Assembly: GCA_030324005.1 (NCBI GenBank)
Contig: JARDVH010000001.1
Coordinates: 143,422,690-143,486,689 of the forward strand
Direction: 5' to 3'
Length of the DNA: 64,000 nucleotides
DNA from: Negaprion brevirostris
Lineage: Eukaryota
Position 1 is the first letter of the stretch; each line of letters starts with the position of its first letter. Positions 661 to 55,095 of the stretch are shown piece by piece. Position numbers and translations under genes: made by a program. Under the pieces are notes generated by a model, which was not told where the DNA came from, did not search any database, and worked only from the letters and a program-made list of their open reading frames with translations.

Positions 661-787
661 TGGATCGTCTGTGGAGGGAGCAGACTCCATGGCCACGTAG
701 TTCTCTTCACTATCCTCCTGTGAGTCAGTGCTGGAAGCAGTGCTGTGTATGGAAGCTGGTCGGGGATTGACAGGAAACCTGGAGTGG
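661..787 (-). CDS. GAB1: GAB1 coding exon (127 nt, phase 2 to 0): (D)[42 protein letters not shown]
   Basis: Pyrimidine tract and aatcag acceptor, CCA|gtatgt donor. Matches human GAB1 [33 protein letters not shown], including the p85-binding YxxM (human Y589). Frame is continuous with the exon at 9108-9207. Confidence 0.95.
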
Positions 788-1429
788 CTGATTCTTAGGG
801 ATTATTGGGGAAGGAAAAGAAGCAAGAATCCAAACAATTACACTTTATGATCTTCCCATATACACGATCAGCATTTGCAAAGTATAAAACTGTATGTGAG
901 GCAGTGGACCGAACCGAAGACTCATGGACAAACCACAAATTATACTCAGGACGTGATAAAAATCATGCCAAGTTAATTAATAAAATATATTGTGTAAATG
1001 AGCTTAAAAGCAGAGATAAATCCAAGTTTGTCCTATGTCCAATTTTATTGATGTACAGAACGTTTGGAACAATTTTTTCAAATTAATTTTCCAAGTAGAA
1101 CAGCTTTTGGTAATTAGGATCAAATGTGAATTCATGTAAAATGAAAAAAAAATGACAATCATATAGGATATTAATTGAAAATAAGTGACTAGGAGCCATG
1201 GAACAGATCATTAGCCCCCAAATACGTTAACTGGAGTTATGTCCAATGTCACAAAAAAATGGTTAGATAGTATCCAGTTTCTTGAGATTAATCTACTTTC
1301 ACTAGATGTAGGCAAATAATCCCAATAATAGGGCAGATGCAAATGTCCAATTCTTAAATGGAATTAAATTGATTTAATCTGCTCAAAATGAATGAAAATA
1401 CTTATCTTATGTTCAACTGAAAGTTGTGG

Positions 1430-11658: not shown

Positions 11659-11748
11659 CCTTGTGTCGTCTTGGAGGAAAGTCACCTATGGTTTGAGTAT
11701 CAGTTCGTTCTAAAACAGGTTTAGCTCTTAATATTTTAGGACTTTGAC
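11659..11748 (-). CDS. GAB1: GAB1 90-nt symmetric cassette exon (phase 1-1): (G)QSPKILRAKPVLERTDTQTIGDFPPRRHK
   Basis: ttttctcatcaattag acceptor, AGG|gtaggt donor, exactly 90 nt. Matches the 30-aa insert of the long human isoform as I recall it (GQSPKILRLKPHGLERTDSQTIGDFATRRK). Confidence 0.93.
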
Positions 11749-13467
11749 CTAATTGATGAGAAAAGAAGACTCTTCGGTTATAATTTTTCTTTGTAAAATG
11801 GTTTTGCAATATTGGGCTCTTAGCGTGGCCAGTTAGCTGTGCTGAAATTGCAGGTGCAAGTGATAACCAGCCGAGCAAAAGCAATCTGGCCAATTAGCCA
11901 GTCTTCACCATGCTCATGCTTAGAGATTCAAAACATTATTTATTTATTTTTTAAGTAGAGGAGGAAGTAGCTATATCATGCACACATCTGAAGCAGTGTA
12001 GTCAAAGCAGGCAATTATTGAAAAGTAAATGCAGAATTCTTCCCAGGGTACAGATGAACTTCCCAGTGTCACACAAACAGCTGAACGCTTCTGTCACAAC
12101 CACCAGCCTAAACCTCTTTCAAACAGCTCCACAAGATTCGCCTACTCTCAGATGCCTTTTTCAAGTAGCCATTTTTGCAGATTTTCTGAACATTAAACAT
12201 CTGCAGAATCGTATGCGCAGGAAGAAAAGCAGTGGAGTCTAATCTGATCCTGCTCTTAGCCGACACATACACATGTTACAGCAGGACTAGCTAGATAGCA
12301 ATCAGTTTATAGGAAGAGGTGACTAATTTTTGCCCATCCCTGATTGCAATGCAGTGAAGTCAGTTGCAAAGACAATGTCATCAGACAGATTCATTTTTAT
12401 CTTAAAATCTTATGGAGTTTTGTTCTCTGCTTGTGCCGAGGAATGGAATATCTTTCATTTCAAACAGCCACCGTCATCAGCCAGGCATGCATGGTGAGAT
12501 GCTGAGTAAACATACTCTGCTGTATCTGACCAACATGCCTGGCTCTAACTCTCAAAGCTCGTCCTTTCGCCACATGTGAATGATCACCAACTTGGTGCTC
12601 AACTAGGGTGGGACAGCATTTTCAACTCAGGAATGCAACATTTAAAAAAAATCTATACTGCAAGCAAATCTTAAACGTTATCAGCCATCTGCAATTCCAT
12701 CAGTCATTTCCAGTAAGCAGACTGACTCCTGTTTGGTTAGTTTAGCAATCAAACTCGTGGAGACATCAAGACTTCTGAAAGCCACATCCTCAATTTCAGC
12801 CATTACCTCAATCTTTCAAATTACACGGGAAACAAACCACATTTAACACTGGCATTTAGACTAGAATTGAACTACTTGCTCACAAAATCTCCACTGCTTG
12901 CTTTAGCAAGGGGTGTGAACAGTTGGCTCCCATAAGCAGTAATGACTTCAAGCCCAAGGATGGCGGGAGACTAATTTGTTTCCCCCTCAAGTTGTACAAG
13001 GAAGAGCTAGTTTCATTGTGGACTGCTGTGTAATGTACTATGTGAAATGGAAGCTTCACTCTGATGATAGGGAAGGGCAAATAGACTCGCCCTCCTTGAA
13101 CTTGAACTTTGCAGCCTGAGTGTCTGAANNNNNNNNNNNNNNNNNNNNNNNNNNNNNNNNNNNNNNNNNNNNNNNNNNNNNNNNNNNNNNNNNNNNNNNN
13201 NNNNNNNNNNNNNNNNNNNNNNNNNNNNTGAAGTGCTTAGTGGAGTTAACCAGCAAACAAGCTAGATCTACATGACAGGGAAGACCTGGATTAGGTTGCC
13301 AATTAGCTGTGTTAACTGATATCAACATGGAGGAATGCGTTACAGTCAGCCATGATGCCTCCTGGTCGGGGATGGAGGTAGAAACCGGCAAACACTTCTG
13401 CACTCAAATCTCATCAGGGGCACTTGGTGGAACTGCAAATGTAATTATCAGTTCTGGGTAGGATTAG

Positions 13468-25613: not shown

Positions 25614-25946
25614 CTTTTCTTAGCCAATGGCCTTCCACAGTGCCAATGGTATTGCTTCGAAGAGTTTTGCCTGATGTAGGAATGCTGTAATTAGTATCAG
25701 CCTCTGAGGACGAGCGTGGTACACAATAGGTGTCCACGGGGGAACGGTCATGAGATAGAGAAGGTTTTGGTGGGCGAGGTGGAGGAACATCTGGTATAGG
25801 TTCCAACTTTGAGCAACTTTGACTTAGGGTCCCCTCTCCGGAAGGTCGTGGAATCTGATAAGTACCTCCTGGCGTGGGAGGAATGTCATAACAGACAGAC
25901 ATCTGTCTCATTTGATTTTCTATACCAGATATCCGTGAGGGTGTAT
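25614..25946 (-). CDS. GAB1: GAB1 exon 4 equivalent, visible 3' part (5' part lost in N gap 25947-26530): [110 protein letters not shown]
   Basis: Matches human [15 protein letters not shown]...PPPRPPKP (Grb2 SH3 site)...RSNTI...LRK; AAG|gtcagt donor in phase 1. Confidence 0.97.
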
Positions 25947-33935: not shown

Positions 33936-34822
33936 TATTGTTATTATTGAGTAAGGAACCAATACAGGGCCTAGATCCACATTTCAGTTCTTCAACACCT
34001 AACTTATTTCAGTATCTACCTCTTTTCAGCCCTCCCCTTTTATGCATGACTGGCTTTCCAATCCAAGTACAATTATTTTTGAAGACTAGGCTCTTAAAGA
34101 GATTGTACTCTTCTTCTGGGAATATCATCATCATCAACTTTCAGCCTCAATCAATTGGCTTCAATGTTCAATTGAATATAGTACACAGACACTGGATATT
34201 TCATATACATGTAATATAGATACATACATTATATGCATATATTTAGAATGTACTCTGATTAAGTGAACCATTTAAAAAAGGTATAGCTGACATTTTTTCC
34301 ATCTAACATAACATTCAAAGGTAATTCACTAATGCCTCATCTTGGAGCATTCCTTTAATTGCACTAGAGTATTTAGATAGGTTTAAATATCATTGGATTC
34401 AGCTTTATTCAATATGTTTACCACCAACTTATGAAAGTTAGAATCAATTCATGTAGCGATCCATTTCAACAAATTAGATTAGTGGATCATATAAAACATT
34501 TCTTCAAGGGTCTACGTTGGTTAATAATTGATTGACAAGTAAGTGCCATGCAACCTTTACCATCCTGGACTCAGGATTCACCAAGCACGAGTTCCACGCC
34601 ATGCCATTTCCCAGAAACTCTGACGTAATTTCACAAAAGCCACTGTAAAGAGTTAGTAGGAAGCAGATATATCAAGGTTAGAATTTCAAGCAGTGGCAAG
34701 AGTGTAGTTTGCAGAGTGGAAAGCCAAACCATTTCTGGCACACAGATCAAGTCTGAAATGCTGAGAACTGCATACGGGTCCACGTTTTCACTATAGACCC
34801 ATTTGCAATTCATTAAACTCAC

Positions 34823-34909
34823 TGATTGTGAATCGGATGCTTTTTGCTTTCAAAATCTTCCAGCAGAAGATACTCGTCCCCCTCTTCTGTGGTAAATGAT
34901 GATGCTCGG
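34823..34909 (-). CDS. GAB1: GAB1 87-nt symmetric cassette exon between exons 3 and 4 (phase 2-2): (S)RASSFTTEEGDEYLLLEDFESKKHPIHN(Q/H); probable striated-muscle-specific exon
   Basis: tccatttcctctgtgaaatag acceptor, TCA|gtgagt donor, 87 nt (multiple of 3). Open in the frame set by the phase-2 donor of exon 3. Peptide resembles the mammalian muscle exon as I recall it (EEGEEYLLLEDFESK). Confidence 0.88.
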
Positions 34910-35959
34910 CTATTTCACAGAGGAAATGGAAGATGACAACATAAAAATGGCTTGGCTAAATCTAATTTCAGTGCAGAATGTAATAAAGATCTTAAACAAA
35001 AAGAAGCAGACATTAAGTGCCATCTTCCTCTGAAATGCAGCTGATGACAAAGCAGCCAATTACAGAAATGTAATGAATTTTGCGCATATCCTGTCAAATT
35101 AGAATTGGTAAAAAAACACAAACAGAATGAAATATATAAAATTTGACCAAGGCACAGGCAAGTAAGTGAATAAACTTGAAACATTAAACAAACAGCTAAT
35201 TTCCAACGTACTTAAGTAACTCAAATATTTGTTTTGCAACATCAGATTACTTTATTATTGTTCCTTTAGGGCCAGTGCCATAGATAAAACTAAGCTATAA
35301 AAATATCTCAAGAATGAAAAAATACACAATTACTGGAAGCCAATTTATTTTAGTCATTTGGTAGTACGTTACTTAAGTATTGCTGAAAAGAAATACTATT
35401 CATCTCATCAGGACAGTGAAAGAACAATTCACACTACATGAGAAGAGCACTGATTCATTGGCAAGTAGACTCTGAGCATTCTTTACATAAAAAAGGAGAA
35501 TATTATGATACTGATTGTGTATTCTCATTGTTCTACACTTTTCACAGGATATGTACTAGAAGAAGTGCACAGTTACTAGATAATTTTATACACTCATGAC
35601 CATTGTGAACAAATGAGCTGGATCAATATTATTTATTGGGTCTACAGTTTTAGAACAGTCATGTTACAATGAGGAATACAAATTTTTGGCAAAGGCTACA
35701 ATGTAAATACATAGAAATCTATATGTATGTCAACATACGTGAATATATCTAGACATTTGATTGCCACTCTTGAAGTCCATTGGATTGTCTATGTAGTTTC
35801 AGGAATAGTTCATTCAATATTTTTGTTTCCCCCTGCCACCACCAACCAAATGCAAATTTTGCCACTCCAGGTGACTGCCTTGTTTGCTTAGTGGTTGCAT
35901 CAGTCTGATGATATAATGGATGTTTGCAATCACATACGTTTTATTCACATATTCACTTA

Positions 35960-37600
35960 TAGAATGGTTCACTTACAGGCCTTTTGGCAAGTCTGTCGTA
36001 TCTGTGTCAGCTTTCAGCAACAGCAAACTAGCTGAACCCCTTCTTTCCCCATAGCCTTAAATGTTCTCTTTGAGGTGCTTTTCCTTTAAGAGACCAAATG
36101 GTATCCCTCACCAACCTCTCAGGTTTTTGCTGTGCAAGTGTTTTTCCTTATGTTATCGTTGATTCTTTAGACAACCAGCTTCACGTCTTCTGGCACTTGA
36201 CTGTCCCATCAACAGGAACAATTACTGTCTGTCTGCTCTGTCCAGGCTTCTCATGTTTTTGAACACTTCTATTATATCTTCTCTCAACTTTCTCTTCTCG
36301 TAAAAGAACAACCCCAACTCGCACAATCTATCCACATAACTCAAGTCCCTCATTTCCAGAGCCATTCTCAAAAAACCCGAAAAACGTGCAGTACCTGGAA
36401 CTGGACAAAATACTCCAGTTGAGGCCAAACCGATNNNNNNNNNNNNNNNNNNNNNNNNNNNATTCCTTACTTTAGAACTCTGTCTCTATTTGAAAAGCCC
36501 AGCATCCTTTAAACATGTTTAACCACATTCTCAACCTCACCTGTCACCTTCAATGATTTGGGCGTACATACGCTGGTTCTCTCTTTTCTGGCATCCTATT
36601 TAGAATTGAATTTTTTATTTTATATTGCCTCTCCTAATTCTTTCTACCAAAAAGCACCACTTCACACTTCTCTGCATTAATTTCATCTGCCACATTATGC
36701 CGATTCCAGACAACTGCTTCTTCAAGTCTATCACTGTCCTCATCAGTTTCCACTAATTGTCATATGTAACTTTTGAAATTGAGCCCTGCACACCCTTAGA
36801 GTCTAAGTCATTAAAATATATCAAGAAAAGCAGTGGCCTTAGTACCAACCCCTGGGGAACCGCACCATATATACGTGCCTCCAGTTTGACAAATAACTAT
36901 TAACCATTAAACCTGTTTCCTGTTACTCAGCCAACTTTGAATCCATGCTGCCATGTCCCTTTTATTCCATGTGTTTCAATTTTTCTGAGAAATCTATCAT
37001 GTGGCACTTCATAAAACATTTAGCCAAAGTCCACATACATTACATCAACCAACCTTCATCAACCATCTGATATCTTAGCAAAACAATTCAATCAAATTAG
37101 TTAAACTCAATTTGCTTTTGACTATTCCGTGCTGGTTTTCTTAAATTAATCCACACTTGTCCAAGTAATTGTTCCTTTTATTCCAAAGATCATTATCATC
37201 CCTCCAAGCTTTCCCACCACCGTAGTTAAACTGATGGGCTTGAGTTTCCAGTCAGAGGTCCAACATTTCCAATTCTCCAGTCCTCTGACACCATCTCTGT
37301 ATCTAAAGAGTATTGGAAGATTAAGGCTAGTGCGTCTGCAATTTCCAACTGTAATTCCCTCTGCATCCTCGATGCATCTGATCCGGTCCAGGTGACTTAC
37401 TAATTGTTACTGCCTTATCCATCTTTCGACAATCCTGTTATCTCCGCTTTCACTGATTTTGGCATCATCTTCCTTGATAGAGACAGTTGCACTCATTTAG
37501 TGCCTCAGCAATACTCCTCTGCCTCCATGCATAGCTTCCCACTTTGGTCCTTAAACCGCCTCATCCCTTCTCTTTACCATCTTTTCACCATTTATATGCT
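35960..37600 (-). mobile_element. Old CR1 LINE remnant (RT domain to 3' end)
   Basis: Minus strand LSYVDRLCELGLFFYEKRKLREDIIEVFKNM; agtaccaacccctggggaacc is GVPQGLVL reversed; tcatctgc is the FADD region. Confidence 0.8.
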
Positions 37601-37769
37601 TACAGAATCAAAGTTTAACATTTAAGAGTTAGAAATTTAACAGCTCATAAAACACAAATATGAATAAAGAAGCTTATTCAAAGAAATTCTGCAGTTTATC
37701 ATCATAGGATCAAACTGTGTTATGACAGTTGCTTTGGTTATATGAAATGCTTCTAGAACATTTGGAAAA

Positions 37770-38215
37770 TGATGATTTGAGCTTCCTTATAAGGTAATGG
37801 TGAGCCGTCTTCATGAACCGCTGCAGTCCATGTTTTGTAGGAATACTCATGGTGCGTTTAAGGAAGGGAAACCCAGGATTTTGATCCAAGTGACAATGAA
37901 GTAACAGCGATATAATTCAAAATCAGGATGGTGTTTGACTTGGAGTGGAACTTGCAGCTGGTGGTGTTTCCATACATCTGTTGCCCTTATCCTTTTAGGT
38001 GGTATAAGGTTACAAGTTTGGAAGGTTCTGATGAAGGAGTATTGACCAGTTGCTGCTATGCATTTGTACACAGCACATGCTGCTGCCACTGTGTGTCAGT
38101 GGTGGAGGCAGTGAATGTTTAAGCTGGTGGATGGGGGGTGCCAATCAAGTAGGCTCCCTTGTCCTACATGTTGTTGAGCTTCTTGAGTATCATTGGAGCT
38201 GCATTCATCCAGGCA
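37770..38215 (-). mobile_element. CR1-group LINE 3' fragment (same family as 2510-3860)
   Basis: ccaggattttgatccaagtgacaatgaag...ggtggtgtttcc...gagcttcttgagt...tggagctgcattcatccaggcaa aligns with 2660-2985. Confidence 0.8.
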
Positions 38216-38396
38216 ATAGGACCAGAACCAATGGTTAAAGAGACAATATCAATTAATAGGCAGTTGCAGACAGGGGTTGGGTATAAACTTTAGATTCAAT
38301 ATCAGTGTTCTCTTTTCTTTGTCATCACGTTGTTTTGAATCTTCTCGCTTCTATAACAGATGCATTCTAATGCAGCACTTTGCACGAGCTGCTGTT

Positions 38397-39003
38397 CATA
38401 TTAGGAACATGGAAACAGAAACTAGAAGCAGGATTAGGCCATTAGGCCCTTTGAGCCTGCTCCGCTATTCGGCACGATTGTGGCTGATCCTCAAATTCAA
38501 TATTTCAATCCTCCCCCATATTCCTTTAGCCCCAAGAGCAATATCTAATATTTTCTTGAAATCAGACAACATTTTTGCCTCAACTAATTTCTGCAGTTGT
38601 GAATTCCGCATATTCATCACCCTGGCTGAAGAAGTTTCTCCTCACCTCAGTTCCAAAAGGTTTACCCTTATCCTCAAACCATGACCCATAGTTCGGGATT
38701 CCCCTACCATCGGGGGATTCTTTCTGAATCCACAATGTCTAACTCTGTTATAACTTTATAAGTTTTAATGAGATTCCCGCTCACTCTTCTAAACTCCAGT
38801 TAATATAATCCTAACCTATACGACAGACCTGCCATCCCAGGAATCAGCCTGGTAGACCTTCACTGCACTCTCTCTATAGCAAGAGCATCCTTCCTCAGAT
38901 AAGGACACCAAAGCTACACACAATATTCCAGGTGTGGCCTCACCAACGCCCTATAGAATTGTAGTAAAATATCCCTATTCCTTTACTCAAATCCTCTTGC
39001 TAT
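38397..39003 (-). mobile_element. CR1 LINE 3' end
   Basis: gaaacagaaactagaagcagga tail...ccatcccaggaatcagcctggt...tattccaggtgtggcctcaccaa is LVRPHLEY reversed. Confidence 0.88.
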
Positions 39004-42400: not shown

Positions 42401-42614
42401 CTAGTGGGTTCAGGCTTTTTGCTTTCACAGTTGGCTAGCCACAGATAATCCTGTGGATCTTCCTGGCTGGATAACGATGCCAGACGTCGCACGCTGATGG
42501 GCTGATAGGGGGGAGGTAGCGAGCCCATGGAAACTGCTGGCCGTACAGAAGGCTGCACAGAAAGAGGTACCTCAGTACCAGCATTACCAGAGGGATTTGA
42601 TGGTTTAACAGCAT
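42401..42614 (-). CDS. GAB1: GAB1 exon 3 equivalent (214 nt, phase 1 to 2): (D)[70 protein letters not shown](R/S)
   Basis: ttttttgtaccattatag acceptor, TAG|gtaaga donor. Matches human DPVKP...LPPPYQLI...[22 protein letters not shown]. Confidence 0.96.
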
Positions 42615-47149: not shown

Positions 47150-48640
47150 GGGCTATAATTTCTTGGATTGTCTTCTGCCCTTCTTAAACAGAGAAATAAC
47201 GTTACCTAGTCTACAATCCTCTGGTACCTCACCCCGTGGCTAAAGGGGATACAAAGATTTTGGCCAATGCGTCAGCAAATTCTTCCTGCGCCTCTCAGTA
47301 TTCTGGGATAGACCCTATCTAGCACTTGGGACTTGCCTACCTTATAGTGTTCTCAAAACCTCCAATACCACCTTCCTTTTTATCTCAACATGCTCTAGAA
47401 TGTTAACATCCTCCTTTCCATATTCACTATCCACCAAATCCTTCTCCTTTTGAATATTGATGCCAAGTATACGTTAAGGACCTCACCCACCTCATCTGCT
47501 TCCAAACATAAATTCCCTCCACTGTTGTTGAGTGGACCCATTCTTTCCTTAGCTATTCTCTTCCTCTTTATATATGGATAAAAAGACTTGGGATTCTCCT
47601 TAATCCTGCCTGCCAAGGGCATTTCATGGCCCCTTTTAGCCTTCCAAAGCTCCTTCCTGCTACCTTTGTATTCCTCAAGAGTCTTGTCCATTTTCAATTT
47701 CCTGAAATTTATGTATGCCTCCTTCTTTTTCACTAAGCTCACAATCTTGTCATCCAGGGTTCCCGAATCTTGCCATCTTTATCTTTCATTTTTACAGGGA
47801 CATACTTGTCCTGAATTGTTAACAAGTGACTTTTAAAAGCCTCCCACATATCAGATGTGGATTTACCCTCAAACAGCTGTCCCCAGTCTACATTCCCTAG
47901 CTCCTGCCTAATACTATCGTAGATAGCCTTCCCACAGTTAGTACTTTCATTCTGGGACTACTTTTATCCTTTTCTATAAGTATCTTGAATCTGGCAGAAT
48001 TGGATCACTGTTCAAAAAATGGTCCCCCACTGAGACATCAATCACCTGTCTGGGCTCTTTTCTCAGAACCAGGTCTAAGATAGCCTCTTCCCGAGGTGGA
48101 CTAACTACACAATGCCTCAAAAAGCACTCTTGGAAACACTGAAGAAACTCAGCCCCATCCAAATCCCTGACGCTAAAGGAATCCCAGTCTATATTGGGGA
48201 AGTTAAAATCACCCTGCTGTTTTCACATCTTCCCATAATCTGTTGGCATATCAGTTCCTCCACTTTGCGCTGGCTGTTAGGAGGTCTTGAGTATAACCCC
48301 AACAGTGTGATTGCACTGCTCCTGTTCCTGAGTTCTACCCATATGGCCTCACTGCATGATTCCACTAAGGTATCCTCCCTCTGTATAACTGTGACATTTT
48401 CCCTAATCAGTAAAGTAACACCCCCACCTCTTCTGCCACCCTATCTCGCCTGAAGCACCTAAATCCTGGAATGCTAAACTACCAGTCCTGCCCTTCTTTC
48501 ATCCAAGTCTCCATAATTACCACAACATCTTTCTTTCATGTAGTAATCTAAGCTTTTAAGTTCATCTGCCTAACCAGTCATACTCCTTGCATTAAAGCAA
48601 ACACATGTCAGACCATCTGTCCTGTCCAATTCAGGTTCTT
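47150..48640 (-). mobile_element. Decayed CR1 ORF2 (APE endonuclease to linker)
   Basis: Minus strand DGAEFLQCFQECFLRHCVVSPPREEAILDLVL and IKENPKSFYPYIKRKRIAKERMGPL...LNVYLASIF; frameshifts. Confidence 0.9.
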
Positions 48641-51600: not shown

Positions 51601-53924
51601 ACCAGCACACCCCCCTTCGCCCACCCAAAGAAATTCGGCAGCAAGCCCGTCTCCACGCAGCCAGAAAAATCTGACTTTGTCTTATTGTTAAACTGCTAAG
51701 TGGTTTAGGTAATGGCTTTTGTGCCATGTGTTTGGTGTCCGCCTTCAGAGAGCTGTTGGCCCATTAGATGGCTGGCAGTCTCAGCACTGGGAGTGGTAGC
51801 CACTGCTGCAACTGCAGTCAGTCCCCCATGTGGAATGGCACAGAGGCTGGACTGCAAGTTAAGTATGGCGGCCTCTCTTTGGCTAGTTAGGAAGGGCTGT
51901 GATCGGGAGGTCAGGATGAGGTGGGTGGGGGAGTCGGAATAAGTCAGAGTGGCAATCACTGTTAGGAGAGCCTCTGTTGGGGTCCTAGAGTGGCACCCTA
52001 AGCCCAACTGGCTAAAGGGTGGGTAGGTGAGCCAGCCCATACCTACCCTGCCACTGGTAAAATACCAGTGGAAACAGAAATTTCCCACGCCACCTGATTC
52101 TTAATGTCCGTTCCATAAGCAAAGTTAGATTGGAGTGCAAGATGGGGGGCACAGGGTGGCTGGTATAAAATTCCAGCCATATCTTCAAAGCAATTTTTGA
52201 TAAAAAGCAGTTAAGCCACAAATCACTTTGTTTAGATTAGTTTATATTGTTCCTATTTAATATCTGCTAAAATCTTTCTTGCTTCAATTGTTTTGATTGT
52301 GGATCAATGTATAACCTTTTTTTAAGCTTGGAAACATTGTCATGTTGATGATAGCCAAAATGCAGTCCAGCTTAACAATGAAAGTTGAGTTGACATCAGT
52401 TCAACAGTGCATAACCTTGTTGTTCTATTCAATGCCGACCATAGCTTCAAACTCCACATCCACTCCTACATCAAGACTGTGCACATTCATCCTAAAATAA
52501 AATCTGTCTGTTTCATCCCAACCATTATTGAAACCCTTGCTCTAGTTTGTCCAAGCTTAATTTCTCAAATGCCTAGAATTCTACCTAAATAAACTGCCTC
52601 ATTCATAACTCTTGTTACCTGCACCCCTGTGCTATCTAAGATCCTGCTCCTCTCTATCCATGCCAACCTCTGATAGTAGGTGCTGTTGCCAGCCTTCCAA
52701 GTGAAATAGAGATCTTTCTCTAGCTTTTTTGAGACTGTTTTGTGATCTGGTTGCAACAGTCTGAAGGGTTTGTTATGATCCTCATACTGAACAATAACCT
52801 TTTAAGGAAAAAGGAATCCCTACAATGCCAACAGTACAAAATATATTGGACAAGATTTTGCTTTCTAAAAAGCTTTCACTGTAATGATCTAATTAAAATC
52901 AACGCACAGTGAACTCTTGATGAGTCACTCTCAGGTGGCATGAAATTCTGCTTTGTTGACGTTAACAACTATTCCTGCTGGCAGAATTATCAAAAGCAAC
53001 AGAACAATGCCCATGACTCGCTGAAATTCCATAATGATTGATCTGGATTAGCCAAACCTTTGCTAGGTGCTGACAAGAGAAATAATGCTGAAATCAGGGG
53101 TCACAAGATTGTGCCAAAAAAGCAGATTGGTTGGAGCTAAGTGCACTCAAATTTCTCTGTGGAACTAGACCTGGCAAAGACCTGTGAGAAAGTTAAAGAT
53201 TTTGTTAACCAGAGCAAAAAATTGAGAGGGCAGGTGGAAAACAGTGACAGAAAGTAGACACTGCAAGAAAGCTGGGAATTCTGCCATCATATTTGTCCAC
53301 AATTCTGAAAGCCAAGGAGAACATCTTGGAACAGTTCAACAAATGGGTATTCTCTCCAGCAAAGGAAGAGGAGGAGAGAATGACCATCTGTGCCAACATT
53401 GAAGCAGCTCTGCTAACGTGGTACAATCCATGCTGGCCAAGCAGAGATGTGCCAATTTCCGGCTCCATCCTGCAGAAAAGGGGAGTCACCATGGTGAAGA
53501 AGCTAGGACACATGGAATTTACATGCAATGATGGATGACTGGACTGATTCAAGACAAGGCACAACATTGTCTTCTGCTCGGCGAGTGTTGAGGGCATTGC
53601 CATTACGACAACAATGACAGATGACCGGCTCTTAAATGGTCTTGTCCATGTCTTGAATGTAAATGCATAAAGAGACATATTTGACATGGGTGAAACCGGA
53701 CTGTTTTACCGTCTTTTGCCAGACTGCTGTTTGGCGTTTACAGGAGCACGTGTAATGGCAGAAAGCAAAGAACGGACCACGGCTATGGACAATGCCAACA
53801 TGGATGGCATCAAAAATCTGTTGCCTCTCATGAGGAAGACCAAGAAACCACAATTCTTTTCAAAAGTTACTACCCACACAGAATAAGGCAAATAAAAAAA
53901 AGGATCAGAAAAGTGGACAAAATG

Positions 53925-54275
53925 TTTTTTTTTGGTTCATTTGTTGGACATAGGCTTCACTGGGTAGCTAGCATTTATTGCCCATCCCTAGTCACCAGAG
54001 GGCAATTGAGTGTCAACCACGTTGCTGTGGATTTGGACTCACATGTAGGCCAGACCAGGTAAGGACGGCAGAATTCCTTCCCTAAAGGACATTAGTGAGC
54101 CAGACAATTGACAATGATTTCATGGTCATCAGTAGATTCTTAACTCCAGATATATTTTATTGAATTCAAATTTCACCATCTGCCATAGCAGGATTCGAAC
54201 CCCGGTCCCCAGAACATTAGCTGAGTTTCTGGATTAATAATCGAGCAATAATGCAACTAGGCCATCACCACTCCC
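53925..54275 (-). mobile_element. tRNA-derived SINE (third family) inserted in the Tigger transposase
   Basis: Minus-strand head gtgatggcctagt (A box) and ggggttcgaatcc (B box); tail agggatgggcaataaatgct is shared with the CR1-group LINE at 2510. Confidence 0.85.
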
Positions 54276-55095
54276 TGGGAATCAAAGAAAAAGAACATTG
54301 CCATCATTGTAAACAACTACCCTGACACTGCTGGCCTCAAGACCATCAAGCTGATGTTCCAGCCAGTGGATGAGGGTGTGCTCAGGATCTGGAAAACCCA
54401 CTAATGAAGGCAGCAGATCTCTCAGGCCATTGATAAGAAGTAGGGCTAAAATCCCACTGTTCTCCAGGCCACGTTGACACTGAAAAAGATGGGGAAGGAA
54501 AGCCACATTTGCAAGCTGCTTCAACAATGCTGGGTTCAAACAGATTACAGCTGCAGAAAACAATGGCAGTGATGAGGAGCAGGGGGATGCCAATCTACAC
54601 AATGGTGAGGCATTTTCCTTTTGCCTCTTGGGGGCTAAGATGGAGATTCTGGCAGAGACAATGATAGAAAGATAGATGATGCCGTATGATGTACACTGAA
54701 CTGACAGATGATACCACTGTAGATACAGCACATTCTCTAGCCAAGGAGGTGATGACCCTGAAGATTCCGATGAATGTCTGTTTGTTTACCTGGGTCATGC
54801 CGTGGAGGTGTAGAGATTTTCTAAAATTTCGCACTGCAACACGTAAATACTAACAACACACTTGACTGCATGGCAACATTGAGCACATAAAAGGATTATG
54901 GAGCTTTTCTAGTGATAAATTGTGTGCTGGAGCAGACGAGTGAAGGAGCAGAGAGACAGATAAGAAATTACCTGTTAAAAACCTGTTTAAATAAGNNNNN
55001 NNNNNNNNNNNNNNNNNNNNNNNNNNNNNNNNNNNNNNNNNNNNNNNNNNNNNNNNNNNNNNNNNNNNNNNNNNNNNNNNNNNNNNNNNNNNNNN

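Follow-up and report, generated by a model that had tools for sequence, protein, structure and literature searches.

Alternative exons born by tandem exon duplication are a known class. The closest described single exon is an 81-bp exon of mammalian Gab1 that lies between exons 3 and 4, encodes 27 amino acids and was found in heart and embryonic skeletal muscle, using mouse tissues and rat cardiomyocytes (Yasui et al. 2016, PMC5115770). Its description notes conservation among mammals and no homology to any known domain. In mouse and rat, neuregulin-1 leads to phosphorylation of the long isoform, which is needed for sustained AKT activation; overexpressed long and short isoforms raise AKT activation almost alike, and the 27 extra residues accompany a gel shift from 100 to 120 kDa (PMC5115770). 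According to an excerpt of PMC10453317, the roles of Gab1 isoforms remain unknown. The closest described motif surrounds Tyr183 of Gab1, which lies in a helix defined by NMR from Pro180 to Ile187 (Dietrich et al. 2026, PMC13435814). In the portion of that paper available, Tyr183 is conserved, reported to be phosphorylated, without known partner and practically unstudied; the words isoform, exon, splic- and duplicat- are absent from this portion.

The window, i.e. the whole stretch of 64,000 nucleotides from Negaprion brevirostris analysed here, carries GAB1 on its minus strand with a cassette exon in the intron between exons 3 and 4 (Table 1). This position was set by mapping the exons of Mustelus asterias GAB1 onto the window, where exon 3 has 97% identity to residues 123-193 and the readable part of exon 4 has 100% identity to residues 316-425. 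Translation of minus strand 34909-34823 gives the cassette peptide RASSFTTEEGDEYLLLEDFESKKHPIHN(Q). On the acceptor side there is a pyrimidine-rich tract ending in TAG, on the donor side GTGAGT, and phase 2 at both ends of the cassette equals the phase of the exon 3 donor. A scan of 15,871 nt of intron for open, frame-preserving segments of the form YAG..GTRAG, 60-120 nt long and with a pyrimidine tract, returned the cassette as its one candidate.

Table 1. Coordinates in the window of the GAB1 exons, motifs and candidate regulatory elements discussed in the text.
Feature	Position	Strand	Remark
GAB1 exon 3, constitutive	42401..42614	minus	ends in phase 2, donor AG/GTAAGA at 42401
3' part of exon 3, ancestral Tyr183-type motif	42412..42480	minus	Tyr codon 42447-42445
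Upstream intron flank, pyrimidine tract and acceptor AG	34910..35050	minus	conserved in more distant species (run X10)
GAB1 cassette exon between exons 3 and 4	34823..34909	minus	87 nt, phase 2-2, +29 residues
Cassette Tyr codon, second Tyr183-type motif	34872-34870	minus	
Cassette 5' splice site GTGAGT	34817..34822	minus	run contigs depart from the reference here
Candidate QKI element ACTAAC	34652..34657	minus	166 nt downstream of cassette
Candidate RBFOX element TGCATG	34547..34552	minus	271 nt downstream of cassette
GAB1 exon 4, readable 3' part	25615..25944	minus	5' part is N in the window

Splicing was followed in public sequencing runs. Twenty-one runs were listed, none of them recorded as RNA; 15 were presumed to be RNA from word shares of 0.06-0.12, which is about what the cassette exon alone would yield, and four were examined. 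The joint 34909/42401, which skips 7491 nt with GT..AG ends, is present in contigs of three of these four presumed RNA runs (X1, X3 and X7), coming from three studies and two organism labels, and the exon 3-to-cassette joint has no differences in X1 and X3. Contigs of the remaining run, X10, hold no joint and carry the cassette together with 141 nt of upstream intron instead. In X1 the cassette lies on a contig of 147 nt (30+87+30) shaped like a bubble arm, suggesting that included and skipped paths are both present. The downstream joint, from cassette to exon 4, is known from predicted proteins. An identical insert is found in the RefSeq-predicted GAB1 isoforms X2, X4 and X6 of Mustelus asterias and is absent from X3 and X5; among 63 chondrichthyan predicted GAB1 proteins, 28 include the cassette and 35 skip it. 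The cassette is a real, spliced and optional GAB1 exon. The first-pass annotation had described it as a frame-preserving exon with ag/gtgagt borders in phase 2-2, lying in non-repetitive sequence, and had named the 42401-to-34909 junction as a check. Splice sites, phase and the spliced upstream joint in the presumed RNA runs bear out the exon, and its non-repetitive setting is confirmed by the absence of any repeat match to it within the window and by a single match in its own genome. The word 'hidden' was overstated, as the identical peptide is already part of the predicted Mustelus asterias isoforms.

Other optional parts of GAB1 were seen in the same material. The exons at 661-795 (minus strand) and at about 60-190 bases beyond the window start behave as a mutually exclusive pair, one with a YxxM (PI3K-type) site and the other with a Y-C-x-V-P motif. 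Of 252 GAB1 proteins none carries both exons, 199 and 44 carry one of them and 9 neither. The second form occurs in sharks, chimaera, coelacanth, fishes, turtles, alligator and birds, with none among the mammalian rows listed. All nine chondrichthyan proteins of the second form also carry the cassette, compared with 19 of 54 others, these being predicted isoforms from related species. An exon of 30 amino acids at 11660-11749 (minus strand) is optional as well, also in shark predicted isoforms; we take it to be the one that separates the human isoforms of 724 and 694 amino acids. The predicted Mustelus asterias isoforms X5 and X6 (P0002, P0004) lack most of the PH domain, with P0004 beginning at a Met inside exon 2. 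Fragments at 53208-54785, in GAB1 intron 2, presumably derive from a CENP-B/Tigger-type transposase, which they resemble, and those at 36225-38970 and 47398-48440 are presumably decayed LINE-like intron fragments of CR1/L2 type; the LINE-like fragments attract many repeat-derived run contigs.

Position, phase and sequence identify the shark cassette as orthologous to the striated-muscle exon of mammals. The human insert-bearing protein P0170 (D6RIS0) is identical to the shark cassette at 18 of the first 23 residues, and by eye the cassette also matches the antigen peptide given in PMC5115770. Predicted insert-bearing isoforms exist in sharks, rays, chimaera, coelacanth, sturgeon, paddlefish, teleosts, reptiles, birds and mammals. 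A region search with the shark query returned 23 close chondrichthyan proteins only; with the coelacanth query amniotes were reached (best 120 of 227 matches), and no amphibian GAB1 was found among these best 120. The inserts measure 29 amino acids in chondrichthyans and coelacanth, 30-31 in ray-finned fishes, 27 in mammals, birds and turtles, and 24-25 in squamates. The background given in the first-pass annotation, that mammals have a striated-muscle-specific Gab1 exon of 27 amino acids between exons 3 and 4, agrees with PMC5115770, and the proposed orthology holds, with homologous peptides in GAB1 of chimaera, coelacanth, ray-finned fishes and amniotes. Its two further statements need rewording. 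The isoform was placed before the split of cartilaginous and bony fishes, and it is seen on both sides of that split, yet its age is probably greater, with lamprey and hagfish carrying a copy. The shark exon was called two codons longer, which is correct as a count (29 and 27), but 29 codons is likely the ancestral jawed-vertebrate length, from which amniotes lost codons, rather than a gain in sharks.

The origin of the cassette was approached by comparing it with the 3' end of exon 3, a likeness overlooked in the earlier annotation. The segment 42412..42480 of exon 3 aligns ungapped to 34905-34837 of the cassette, with D-Y-L-W-L-A-N-C-E-S-K-K at the end of exon 3 facing E-Y-L-L-L-E-D-F-E-S-K-K in the cassette. 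The protein alignment scores 41 over 22 residues with 10 identical, a score reached by 1 of 20,000 shuffles. At the DNA level 44 of 69 nt are identical (score 63, reached by none of 5,000 shuffles); identity by codon position is 18, 14 and 12 of 23 for first, second and third positions, so that the DNA likeness, highest at first positions, may reflect protein constraint only. The likeness extends beyond the core into C/F-E-S-K. Exon 3 has its phase 2 end fifteen residues past the Tyr in shark GAB1, GAB2 and GAB3, and the cassette ends 14-16 residues past its own Tyr, whose Y-x-x-L motif is the second one and stands 28 residues behind the first. For a family profile, 17 windows around the first site were taken from GAB2, GAB3, invertebrates, teleost gab1-like paralogues and two cyclostome genes, excluding jawed-vertebrate GAB1 proper. 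On this profile the cassette Tyr ranks second among all Tyr in all seven proteins scored and is clearly above background in six of them; the shark cassette obtains 16.1 bits, which none of 300 shuffles reached. GAB2, GAB3, amphioxus, tunicate and invertebrate-like Gab/DOS proteins have one Tyr183-type motif each (best 150 of 1094 matches), which makes the copy in exon 3 the ancestral one. Between exons 3 and 4 of shark GAB2 and GAB3 no second copy of the motif was found, the best scores being 2.9 and -11.3 against 43.2, with 212 N in the GAB2 stretch. Taken together, these comparisons make it likely that the cassette originated as a tandem copy of the 3' end of exon 3 with its Tyr183 motif.

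The spacing between the two tyrosines is 28 in shark, chimaera, coelacanth, chicken and human despite differing exon length, because the length changes fell behind the motif. It is 25-26 in squamates, 29 in ray-finned fishes, and 30-31 and 39 in cyclostomes. Y-L-L-L-E is invariant across the 169 jawed-vertebrate proteins that bear the cassette, and 133 of the 169 keep the 11-residue core; these counts are partly circular since the search pattern demands Tyr and Leu, and their rows are isoforms, not species. Residues flanking the motif drift freely in ray-finned fishes and cyclostomes. The second copies of ray-finned fishes and lamprey retain the Cys of the motif. The R-A-S-S-F at the start of the cassette was considered as a site like the 14-3-3 site at GAB2 Ser210 and dropped, the Arg not being conserved. 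Dileucine, YxxPhi and LIR readings of Y-L-L-L were set aside as too unspecific.

Cyclostomes, whose split dates back over 500 million years, were used for dating the copy. Of the 10 cluster members among GAB1-like proteins of lampreys (Petromyzon, Lethenteron), 8 carry a second motif 30 residues behind the first, and 2 are without exactly that 28-aa segment. Hagfish have a second motif in two paralogues. Myxine P0244 holds a segment in register with the shark cassette and with the same N-Q end, and P0249 and P0389, of the second paralogue, have a longer acidic insert that puts the second motif 39 residues behind the first. Lampetra P0247, which groups with these two, has no second motif, and no second copy was found in the lamprey B and teleost gab1-like representatives among the proteins examined. 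This gab1-like paralogue (P0242, P0243, P0250, P0257; salmon and pufferfish among those named) groups with GAB1 and has one motif copy in its representatives. Cyclostome second sites prefer the cassette profile over the exon 3 profile by 11-23 bits and first sites by 2-5, a difference inflated by the exon 3 profile being the tighter of the two; the preference favours one shared origin. The second site of hagfish A is weak, with 8.4 bits against shuffle maxima of 7.6 and 11.3, and is not above background on the family profile. A clade of GAB1 with the cyclostome genes is neither rejected nor demonstrated (p-AU 0.34), and the two GAB trees, one of them a quick tree, leave the base of the vertebrate GAB family without resolution. 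With lamprey and hagfish carrying it, the second copy probably predates jawed vertebrates; the simplest account, which we consider probable, is that part of the exon was duplicated once in the GAB1 lineage before the cyclostomes branched off.

With regard to regulation, the contig of run X10, which carries a different and more distant organism label, differs from the window over 34821-35050 by 14 other letters and 7 gap letters, with only 2 listed differences within the cassette. Over exon 3 the same run has 17 other letters. By this measure the upstream flank has changed about as little as exon 3, a coding exon, which is what one would expect next to a regulated exon. Downstream of the cassette stand ACTAAC and TGCATG, a candidate QKI-type and a candidate RBFOX-type motif. 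Both factors usually promote inclusion from the downstream side. Against the background, ACTAAC is present in 13.5% and TGCATG in 13% of 584 windows, and both occur together in 5 of the 584 overlapping windows, the cassette site included, a combination picked post hoc. Ten splicing-factor motifs were counted, and none was significant alone. GAB1 is absent from four supplement files of PMC7782589 and one of PMC6961840. In the proposed mechanism, muscle splicing factors would include the cassette via the downstream TGCATG (+271) and ACTAAC (+166); that these elements promote inclusion is a tentative assignment, somewhat less probable than its opposite. By analogy with mammals, we lean towards inclusion of the cassette in shark striated muscle.

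Inclusion of the cassette would add, 28 residues behind the first motif, another one of Tyr183 type that is more acidic, and the muscle isoform would exchange a single site for a tyrosine pair. Paired action is known from other Gab1 tyrosines, such as Tyr627 and Tyr659, which serve tandem SH2 domains (PMC13435814, in the portion available), and on this ground the muscle isoform is predicted to form a phosphorylated and bivalently docking pair. The acidic, helix-prone second motif would be phosphorylated by ErbB4-type kinases, the cassette Tyr, paired with Tyr183, would dock the same partner bivalently, and this would tune neuregulin-to-AKT signalling in cardiomyocytes; the chances for this combination of phosphorylation, bivalent docking and tuned signalling appear to us evenly balanced. 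A helix may form in the cassette, going by the likeness to the Tyr183 motif and by a helix propensity scale. The AlphaFold model of the GAB1 alignment has a mean pLDDT of 37.2 and is poor even over the PH domain. The cassette Tyr corresponds to Tyr211 in human P0170 (D6RIS0), and the cassette falls inside the PAK4-binding region of GAB1, given as aa 116-234 in the available part of PMC2747914.

Different readings of these observations were weighed. That the cassette is a chance pseudo-exon or a processed copy has practically no probability left: the runs are only presumed to be RNA, which is all that was found in its favour, and the joint in three studies, the single genomic match and the conservation from shark to human have already refuted it. 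A motif this short in a low-complexity acidic context could also come from an exonised intron segment converging on a Tyr183-like sequence, the more so as the DNA likeness is explicable by protein likeness, and separate duplications in cyclostomes and jawed vertebrates would fit trees that do not settle the orthology of the cyclostome genes (p-AU 0.34). We find both distinctly unlikely. Convergence would have to account for the tandem position, the same phase, the same donor distance, a likeness going beyond the core (C/F-E-S-K) and the Cys retained in fish and lamprey copies, and independent origin is opposed by the preference of the cyclostome second sites for the cassette profile.

The main rival to a docking motif is an acidic spacer effect. 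Here the exon is real and orthologous and acts as a spacer or conformational switch, affecting access to Tyr183, the PAK4-binding stretch or autoinhibition by the PH domain, and its own Tyr is no docking site. The cassette has 7 acidic residues in 28-30, its 27-residue counterpart accompanies the gel shift and both isoforms activate AKT similarly (PMC5115770), and its location within the PAK4-binding region agrees with such an effect (PMC2747914, in the part available). Nevertheless, this reading is unlikely in view of the flanks that drift freely in ray-finned fishes and cyclostomes while the motif stays, and of the constancy of Y-L-L-L-E (169/169) and of the core (133/169), partly circular and counted over isoform rows as these figures are. 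Another question is tissue. Muscle specificity was demonstrated only in mouse tissues and rat cardiomyocytes (PMC5115770), so sharks might include the cassette broadly or in other tissues, the restriction to muscle being a mammalian specialisation. This is somewhat improbable: predicted forms that skip the cassette are no rarer than those that include it (35 versus 28), and a regulated muscle exon would agree, if weakly, with the conserved upstream flank and the RBFOX/QKI-type motifs downstream.

Our preferred reading, held with good though not full confidence, is that the cassette is the alternatively spliced orthologue of the mammalian muscle exon, a tandem duplicate of the end of exon 3 and a predicted second Tyr183 docking motif for heart and muscle GAB1. 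A wider version is more speculative, and we would not expect all of it to hold: a pan-vertebrate duplicate of the Gab/DOS Tyr183 helix motif, older than the lamprey-shark split, would be switched on by splicing in striated muscle, giving a spaced tyrosine pair that docks a conserved partner bivalently, and in non-mammals it may be co-regulated with the mutually exclusive exon swap that removes the third PI3K (YxxM) site. The finding gives a handle on the role of the heart-specific 27-aa Gab1 insert and on the binding partner of Tyr183; if the insert has been a second Tyr183 motif since early vertebrates, one pull-down with two peptides addresses both questions. In the neuregulin/ErbB pathway of the heart, GAB1 would then exemplify how tissue-specific splicing can double a short signalling motif. 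The exon itself is already known in mammals and automatically annotated in fishes; its evolutionary reading is new. No report of the exon duplication, of conservation in fishes or lampreys or of a splicing regulator of the exon was found in the literature searched, which was mostly open access.

Compared with the mammalian exon of PMC5115770, the shark cassette agrees in gene, in its place between exons 3 and 4, in preserving the frame, in alternative splicing, in 18 of the first 23 residues (human) and in the Tyr-Tyr spacing of 28. It differs in length, with 87 nt and 29 aa versus 81 nt and 27 aa, the difference lying behind the motif; the likeness to exon 3 was not remarked on in PMC5115770. 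RefSeq-predicted GAB1 isoforms of chondrichthyans, coelacanth, ray-finned fishes and amniotes have the same insert, as automatic annotation without tissue, origin or function. GAB1-like isoforms of Petromyzon, Lethenteron, Myxine and Eptatretus carry the insert too, lamprey models existing with and without it. With the Tyr183 helix motif the cassette shares the core D/E-Y-L-x-L-x-x-C/F-E/Q-S-K, the place relative to the exon end and a similar helix propensity, which on the scale used is within the top 2-6% of tail 7-mers. The cassette copy differs in being more acidic, in having no Asp-Pro helix start and in being optional, and its Phe replaces Cys except in ray-finned fishes and lamprey. Like tandem-duplicated alternative exons, it is an adjacent paralogous segment of the same phase in alternative use; unlike them, it can be recognised as a copy of no more than the 3' part of exon 3, and it is an add-on cassette and not a mutually exclusive one.
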